DNA of 64,000 bases from the NCBI RefSeq assembly GCF_003334305.1, contig NZ_QOWS01000001.1. One strand, written 5' to 3'. Position 1 is the stretch's first letter. Each line of letters starts with the position of its first letter. Positions 60,534 through 60,944 of this stretch are shown in pieces. This DNA is from Escherichia coli (GTDB taxonomy: Bacteria; Pseudomonadota; Gammaproteobacteria; Enterobacterales; Enterobacteriaceae). The notes under the pieces are model-generated. The model worked only from the letters and a program-made list of their open reading frames with translations. It made no database searches and had not been told where the DNA came from. The position numbers were made by a program, and so were the translations under genes.

Positions 60534-60944
60534 GTTGTTTGTTTTCCCTTGAAGTCCTTAACGACAAATATCGTTATAAAAAAATGCCAAGCGACACGAG
60601 ACTAATTACCTGGGCATGTTGAAACAATTCCTTAAGGCCAAATCTGTGGACTAACGCACAAAATTATATGCTGTGAGGATAATCTACCGCCGAGGCAAAA
60701 CGAGTTCGAGATTACCCGATTGGTGCGGTCTTGGCGAGCGGTTTTACATGATTTTTTATAAGAAAAAGTGATACAGAAAGTTAATAAGCGGGATTGGTCA
60801 ATTAAAGTACGATTGAGTGAAACGCATGCAATCCATTCATTTACTTAGAGAATGATTTTTGCGCGCGATGGATGAAAGCACGGTGCGCATCATCAGGATT
60901 ATCCTCACTATAAAAATAAGCCTGATGATGTTAATTACTGTGAG

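Follow-up and report, generated by a model that had tools for sequence, protein, structure and literature searches.

A conserved hairpin in the 3' untranslated region of lpxT lies at the mapped 3' end of the Escherichia coli mRNA

Introduction

In phage lambda the sib element, an RNase III retroregulation hairpin, is a duplex downstream of a coding sequence that controls decay of the mRNA from its 3' end. Precise RNA 3' ends located directly after stable stem-loops without U-rich tails were described by Dar and Sorek in 2018 (NAR 46:6797, PMC6061677). For this class of ends an enrichment of C over G in the downstream sequence and trimming by PNPase and RNase II were reported (PMC6061677). The same study raised the possibility that inefficient intrinsic terminators are backed up by Rho, and it considered that terminators could switch their type simply via the U content (PMC6061677). 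A terminator switch of this kind had not been traced at a single orthologous site in the literature examined here.

The intergenic region between lpxT and mepS of Escherichia coli contains a hairpin which, by analogy, appears to be an ordinary member of this known class, the stem-loops without a U-tract that are found at Rho-dependent 3' ends, with a presumed role of Rho at this site. An initial annotation, made from the sequence alone, had listed the structure as a 10-bp inverted repeat with a 23-nt loop and had proposed a protein-binding or RNA-processing site. In this work we analyzed the repeat by RNA folding, by comparison of Enterobacteriaceae loci and with the help of published maps of RNA 3' ends. 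The observation was confirmed, and the repeat is a genuine feature. What is mildly new is solely the occurrence of the orthologous hairpin with and without a T-tract, combined with covariation inside the U-less group.

Results

The lpxT-mepS locus

The analyzed window is a stretch of 64,000 nucleotides from Escherichia coli, in which the genes yeiR, lpxT, mepS and pdeN are all located on the minus strand, in that order. All coordinates refer to this window unless MG1655 positions are given.

61697-62683, minus strand: yeiR
60945-61658, minus strand: coding sequence of lpxT, Kdo2-lipid A phosphotransferase, with the stop codon at 60945-60947 (list of open reading frames, MG1655 annotation and translation)
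60534-60944: lpxT-mepS intergenic region, 411 bp
59967-60533, minus strand: mepS
58230-59786, minus strand: pdeN

The intergenic region was matched in 5426 of 5426 complete E. coli genomes with 95-100% identity. Compared with K-12 MG1655 it contains 6 differing positions and no insertions or deletions, and a window position w was converted to MG1655 as 2269567 + (60945 - w). The length of 411 bp given by the initial annotation for 60534-60944 is correct; it results mainly from the presence of two mepS promoters with 5' UTRs of about 60 and about 169 nt. In the direction of transcription the hairpin is succeeded by about 185 nt of C-rich spacer, and this in turn by the 169-nt mepS leader.

Sequence and fold of the hairpin

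The part of the intergenic region that belongs to lpxT contains two features.

60888-60930, minus strand: lpxT 3'-UTR hairpin (sequence, RNA folds, covariation in 46 sequences and RNAalifold consensus)
60884-60944, minus strand: lpxT 3' UTR of about 61 nt, consisting of the 14-nt A/T-rich linker CTCACAGTAATTAA, the hairpin and a tail of 2-4 nt

The annotated 10-bp inverted repeat is present exactly as described, with the arms CATCATCAGG at 60888-60897 and CCTGATGATG at 60921-60930 and a spacing of 23 nt. Its placement just past the lpxT stop could also be confirmed: the repeat is separated from the stop codon by 14 nt, so that the 15th nucleotide is the first of the hairpin. The proposed 23-nt loop had to be revised, as this segment is mostly paired in the sense-strand RNA. 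In addition to the outer stem of 10 bp (60921-60930 with 60888-60897) the fold of the sense strand shows an inner stem of 9 bp with several G.U pairs, capped by a UAG triloop. The whole sense-strand hairpin therefore comprises about 20 bp and a loop of 3 nt. Structure prediction, one of the checks proposed for the repeat, returned this fold for the 43-mer with -19.6 kcal/mol in the case of the window allele and with -23.7 kcal/mol in the case of the K-12 allele. The window allele contains one C.U mismatch at 60920; K-12 has a G at this position, which results in a G.U pair and an unbroken stem of 20 bp. Folding of the antisense strand of the 43-mer yielded only -14.2 kcal/mol. For the fold of the 111-nt context, an AT-rich stretch, a z-score of -3.65 was obtained. 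The stem has a G+C content of 35% and is, with about 20 bp, longer than the stem of a typical intrinsic terminator.

The tail that follows the hairpin on the sense strand, CGCACCGUGCUUUC, has a single U within the first 8 nt. Because a U-tract is absent, as the initial annotation had already pointed out, and because the terminator scan makes no call at this site, the hairpin is not a classical intrinsic terminator. A scan of positions 59800-61800 with Rfam 15 at a permissive E-value revealed no relevant family; the sole match was a chance microRNA with E = 0.35, located elsewhere.

The linker CTCACAGTAATTAA (60931-60944, minus strand) contains stop codons in both other reading frames, with TAA at two offsets. 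Its AATTAAC portion is conserved in many genera.

An inverted repeat on its own is weak evidence of a feature. Dinucleotide shuffles of the window contain about 3 perfect 10-bp inverted repeats per 64 kb with a spacer of at most 40 nt. The raw energy of the hairpin was also discarded as evidence; it is unremarkable, since an equal or higher stability per 43 nt is reached at 68 other sites in the window. Shuffling of the inner 23 nt reached the observed energy in 10% of the trials with the window allele and in 0.3% of the trials with the K-12 allele. The hairpin is placed beyond chance by the z-score, by its location right behind the lpxT stop, by covariation between genera and by the 3' ends mapped experimentally.

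Mapped 3' ends of the lpxT mRNA

Two independent publications contain RNA 3' ends at this locus.

60884-60886, minus strand: mapped RNA 3' ends, MG1655 2269626-2269628 (tables of Adams et al. 2021 and of the TRS paper)

The Term-seq data of Adams et al. 2021 (eLife, PMC7815308, Supplementary file 1) include a 3' end at MG1655 position 2269627 on the plus strand, and according to the printed flank this end is located 3 nt beyond the last G of the stem. It is found in only the first of three growth-condition lists, with a low score, and is classed as 'orphan' (PMC7815308). The only reason for this class is the distance of more than 50 nt from the stop codon (PMC7815308). The TRS paper (Nat Commun 2023, PMC10687069; Supplementary Data 2-4) lists the termini 2269626 and 2269628 as 'Primary, lpxT'. 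The value R, which is 1 minus the local read-through, amounts to 0.63 with 2269626 as the dominant position and to 0.84 and 0.92 with 2269628; the adjusted p-values of the lpxT termini reach 1e-61 to 1e-175 (PMC10687069). The same tables give the identical 20-bp fold with -24.8 kcal/mol, a longest U run of 3, a length of 62 nt for the lpxT 3' UTR and a classification of lpxT as the last gene of its unit (PMC10687069).

All mapped ends sit 2-4 nt past the stem and thus 3' of an intact hairpin. The mapping of 3' ends had been proposed as a check, and the published positions 2269626-2269628 answer it: Term-seq and RNAtag-seq ends 2-4 nt past the hairpin bear out the suggested link to RNA 3'-end formation. 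In these published 3'-terminus tables the hairpin already has an entry as the lpxT mRNA end. Full-text literature searches yielded no dedicated study of the lpxT hairpin and nothing relevant on the lpxT-mepS intergenic region or an lpxT terminator, and the supplements of TERMITe and SMRT-Cappable-seq do not mention the site.

Conservation and covariation in Enterobacteriaceae

Using MepS we collected 80 loci from Enterobacteriaceae; in 79 of them the lpxT stop codon was located and the downstream sequence was read. Nearly all of the 79 loci contain a hairpin 3-45 nt past the lpxT stop, and at the equivalent position the hairpin is kept in about 70 Enterobacteriaceae loci. For the analysis of covariation we used an alignment of 46 sequences from Escherichia, Citrobacter, Salmonella, Enterobacter and related genera. 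Standard pairs occupy 83% of the cells of this alignment, compared with 24-45% after sliding the 3' partner by 1-3 columns. Compensatory changes affecting both sides were detected in 12 of the 13 pairs, and none of 500 shuffles reached any of the observed pairing measures. An independent calculation with RNAalifold recovered the core of the same helix. In Escherichia the inner core GGGATCGTTTTCGATCCC of the other genera is replaced by an unrelated A/U-rich sequence that is still able to pair.

Conservation and structural support, on which the initial annotation had made its repeat depend, were both found, as the hairpin is kept across the Enterobacteriaceae with covariation. The suggested protein-binding site did not stand up to the same data: the arms change while complementarity is kept (12 of the 13 pairs), and the inner part in Escherichia has been replaced and yet pairs.

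The better fold of the sense strand observed in E. coli is not consistent across genera, with the sense strand folding better in 37 loci and the antisense strand in 27. In addition, A.C cells (34) outnumber G.U cells (22) across genera. Due to these numbers the sense-strand preference of E. coli is not a conserved property. We therefore rejected strand-specific wobble pairing as a general proof of an RNA-level element; it holds in E. coli and fails across genera.

The core CAGGGATCGTTTTCGATCCCTG of the hairpin is conserved in sequence in Enterobacter, Lelliottia, Kosakonia, Phytobacter, Franconibacter, Yokenella and Pseudocitrobacter (loci L004-L053 and others). It is located 15-45 nt past the lpxT stop and includes the loop and two GATC (Dam) sites. 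The sequence constraint on this core is tighter than a plain terminator stem needs.

Variation of the hairpin within E. coli

A sensitive blastn search with a 65-mer detected the hairpin in 5426 of 5426 complete E. coli genomes, at a median of 1 place per genome, which identifies it as a single-copy element. For a comparison of alleles we read seven Escherichia sequences, consisting of five E. coli genomes with an intact hairpin and two locus sequences from genome contigs. Stem position 11 (window 60920) is variable in these sequences and is occupied by C, G or T. The C allele of the window is present as an exact 65-mer in 1526 genomes and the G allele of K-12 in 1981 genomes; the T allele is carried by 'clone D i2', a strain of phylogroup B2, and by an O55:H7 strain. 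Apart from this position the stem is identical in the five E. coli genomes with an intact hairpin. A more divergent locus labelled E. coli (L001) also shows a C-to-U change, with a U.G pair kept. It is conceivable, as a more speculative point, that E. coli lineages differ in the stability of the lpxT mRNA, which would be tuned by the unbroken 20-bp stem of K-12 in one case and by the mismatched C or T allele in the other.

In strain 20A24 (L084, NZ_CP147044.1) a copy of IS1A is inserted into the 3' arm of the hairpin at GGATAATC|GGTAATGACTCC, which corresponds approximately to window position 60895. This natural disruption of the hairpin occurs in 1 of the 5426 complete E. coli genomes.

T-tracts in related genera

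The hairpins that Kluyvera and Klebsiella have at this position precede a T-tract, and the terminator scan calls these structures terminator-like, scoring them as canonical intrinsic terminators. Inspection by eye revealed the same arrangement of hairpin and T-tract in Siccibacter, Atlantibacter, Buttiauxella and Cedecea. Siccibacter and Buttiauxella, the two of these by-eye genera that were tried, were missed by the terminator scan, probably as the T-tract is drawn into the stem by A:T pairing. The T-tract is absent in Escherichia, Citrobacter, Salmonella and most Enterobacter. Partial T-tracts are present in some Enterobacter and Lelliottia, and in Yokenella and Trabulsiella the T-tract is displaced by 12-14 nt. 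The loci with a T-tract are mostly those that are farthest from E. coli by MepS identity, and this distribution suggests that the T-tract is ancestral and was later lost.

The spacer and the mepS leader

The remaining part of the intergenic region can be divided into two segments.

60703-60883, minus strand: C-rich, G-poor spacer, a candidate zone for Rho loading and termination
60534-60702, minus strand: mepS 5' UTR and promoter region, with the P2 start near 60702 and the P1 start near 60593

Within the first 150 nt past the stem (60738-60887) the ratio of C to G is 1.92, which belongs to the top 1.2% of the 150-nt windows on this strand. We also compared the downstream sequences of the relatives. 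The mean C/G ratio was 1.68 in loci with a T-tract versus 1.73 in loci without, and since these values are much the same the downstream C-richness is no discriminator of the mechanism. The C/G skew was consequently dropped as a means to distinguish relatives with a U-tract from U-less relatives, as no difference was found. Supplementary file 2 of Adams et al. (PMC7815308) contains no Rho termination region near 2269-2270 kb; lpxT is weakly expressed.

The positions of the mepS promoters were derived from the numbering of the OxyS site (G146-G156 / G37-G47) and of C(-18) in PMC10798246, according to which the ATG is preceded by P2 at a distance of about 169 nt and by P1 at about 60 nt. Only these two mepS promoters are named in PMC10798246. 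The -10-like hexamers TAATCT and TAATTA are located upstream of the P2 and P1 starts.

Several further observations were made in this part of the window. The mepS leader (60534-60702, minus strand), in which the OxyS pairing site GGACTTCAAGG and a small hairpin, AACGATATTTGTCGTT, are located, is very strongly conserved across genera. Shortly ahead of the start codon of mepS there are published 3' ends from Term-seq (MG1655 2269973-2269975). The block AAATGAATGGATTGC (60828-60842, minus strand), about 130 nt before the P2 start, is near-invariant in 11 of 12 aligned genera, with variable flanks; it may be the site of a regulator. The ATG of AAATGAATGGATTGC opens a short reading frame whose length is not conserved. 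The mepS coding sequence itself contains another perfect inverted repeat of 10 bp (60368-60425, minus strand), CATCCTGAGA ... TCTCAGGATG, with 38 nt between the arms; an ORF-internal 3' end detected by Term-seq (MG1655 2270136) falls where its 3' arm starts. Downstream of mepS the 10-bp inverted repeat AAAGCACTGC / GCAGTGCTTT together with a T-tract (59897-59920) forms a canonical intrinsic terminator, which matches the published primary 3' end of mepS at MG1655 2270620/2270621.

Discussion

Our analysis indicates that a stable RNA hairpin in the 3' UTR of lpxT probably defines the steady-state 3' end of the mRNA. This reading builds on the established structure, on its conservation with covariation and on the mapped 3' ends; from these we infer an involvement of Rho, trimming by exonucleases and a stabilizing effect at the lpxT hairpin. 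RNA polymerase would pass the hairpin and enter the spacer that precedes the mepS promoters, about 185 nt rich in C and poor in G, and transcription would end there, probably via Rho. The 3'-to-5' exonucleases PNPase and RNase II would then trim the tail back until they are blocked by the hairpin, and an end 2-4 nt past the stem would be left. In this way the hairpin would shield the lpxT mRNA from 3' decay and mark the boundary between the transcription units of lpxT and mepS. With the G+C-rich tail CGCACCGUG in place of a U-tract behind the hairpin, RNA polymerase should not be released intrinsically. The strong RNA:DNA hybrid predicted for this tail favors termination further downstream, probably by Rho, with subsequent trimming.

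The hairpin could also act by itself as a weak intrinsic terminator that has lost the U-tract of a canonical predecessor and releases RNA polymerase without Rho. Such a decay would fit the counterparts with a T-tract, scan-called in Kluyvera and Klebsiella and recognized by eye in four further genera, and the sharp boundary at the E. coli site with R values of 0.84-0.92. The lack of a nearby Rho region in the list of Adams et al. points in the same direction, as does the possibility of inefficient intrinsic terminators with a Rho backup raised by Dar and Sorek. Nevertheless, we regard release at the hairpin as unlikely: with one U in the 8 nt past the stem and a G+C-rich tail the weak rU:dA hybrid required by the established intrinsic mechanism is missing, the mapped ends are located 2-4 nt past the stem and not within a U-tract, the stem has 35% G+C, and the site received no call from the terminator scan.

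A processed read-through transcript of lpxT and mepS is a further possibility, either by cleavage with RNase E followed by trimming or by a cut of RNase III in the duplex as in sib retroregulation of phage lambda. Processing had been suggested by the initial annotation, and the unbroken 20-bp stem of K-12, which is near two helical turns, as well as the conserved A/U-rich linker AGUAAUUAAC immediately 5' of the stem would fit this reading. The mapped ends are all 3' of the intact hairpin and none is located within it, and because the mapped RNA keeps the whole hairpin, endonucleolytic processing, including that by RNase III, is less likely. Furthermore, lpxT is the last gene of its unit in the TRS data, and mepS is served by its own two promoters; a mismatch interrupts the 20-bp stem in the alleles of the window, B2 and O157; and we found no RNase III or RNase E data on the lpxT hairpin. 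We therefore consider an origin of the 3' end by processing to be quite improbable.

Readings at the level of DNA have to be considered as well, since the arms form a perfect 10-bp palindrome, which could be an operator, and since a promoter-like sequence is located inside the hairpin, which could serve a third mepS transcript with a long leader.

60907-60934, minus strand: promoter-like TTAACA-16 nt-TATAGT in the hairpin, most likely a chance match (promoter scan)

This pair of hexamers matches at 10 of 12 positions; P2, the more distal of the two mepS promoters reported, lies about 190 nt downstream of it. Many genera share the TTAAC that directly precedes the stem, and for the core CAGGGATCGTTTTCGATCCCTG both sequence and structure are conserved in many genera. 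However, the outer stem positions covary, which suggests that complementarity rather than sequence is kept, and the inner core of Escherichia was swapped for an unrelated pairing sequence. The promoter itself was rejected: the scan detected 1 site where shuffles lead one to expect 1.5, and only E. coli proper has the -10 hexamer, which is absent from E. albertii, Citrobacter and Enterobacter. The genome-wide start-site studies, as far as they are cited in PMC10798246, give only P1 and P2, about 300 and about 190 nt downstream, and the experimental signal at the hairpin is an RNA 3' end. A DNA-level element is, taking these points together, very unlikely. A REP/BIME repeat was likewise rejected, because the hairpin is single-copy in E. 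coli genomes; no repeat is annotated at this position in MG1655.

A chance palindrome without function, for which one could argue that about 3 perfect 10-bp inverted repeats per 64 kb are expected anyway and that the inner extension of the window allele is matched by 10% of the loop shuffles, is already contradicted by the covariation over 46 sequences and the conservation, the presence of the hairpin in all 5426 E. coli genomes and the reproducible mapped 3' ends, and can be practically dismissed.

Returning to the hairpin as the determinant of the steady-state 3' end, the comparison of genera allows a tentative proposal on its origin, which we put forward as possible though short of probable. 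The lpxT hairpin could be a traceable natural case of a terminator that changed its mechanism, in which the T-tract was lost and the hairpin was kept as an exonuclease barrier for transcripts terminated by Rho. The ancestral T-tract may survive in Kluyvera, Klebsiella, Siccibacter, Atlantibacter, Buttiauxella and Cedecea, and the U-tract may have been lost in the lineage of Escherichia, Citrobacter and Salmonella, and wholly or partly in Enterobacter. The hairpin may have remained under selection, with the compensatory changes inside the U-less group. As a comparative series these loci are a possible small natural test bed for the interconversion of intrinsic and Rho-dependent termination.

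For the locus itself the result fixes the 3' boundary of the lpxT transcript, with a 3' UTR of about 61 nt, and identifies lpxT and mepS as separate units at steady state. Both are cell-envelope genes, with lpxT acting in lipid A phosphorylation and mepS in peptidoglycan expansion, and their insulation from each other is worth knowing when either gene is engineered or deleted. The result is mainly housekeeping and opens no new question.

Comparison with known systems

With the class described by Dar and Sorek the lpxT hairpin shares the stable stem-loop just past the stop codon, the lack of a U-rich tail, the precise 3' end a few nucleotides past the stem and the excess of C over G downstream, the last of which counts as weak evidence. 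It differs from this class in its unusually long stem of about 20 bp, A/U-rich with 35% G+C, and in its absence from the list of Rho regions of Adams et al. Like a canonical intrinsic terminator the hairpin directly follows a gene and marks an RNA 3' end, but the 7-8-nt U-rich tract, which is present in the counterparts of Kluyvera and Klebsiella, is missing in E. coli. REP/BIME elements are also intergenic palindromes that are able to block 3' exonucleases upstream of possible Rho termination; in contrast to them the lpxT hairpin is single-copy, A/T-rich and without similarity to a repeated family. The likeness to sib of phage lambda consists in the long, near-perfect duplex downstream of a coding region, whereas the lpxT hairpin shows no sign of cleavage in the stem and the mapped RNA retains the whole hairpin.
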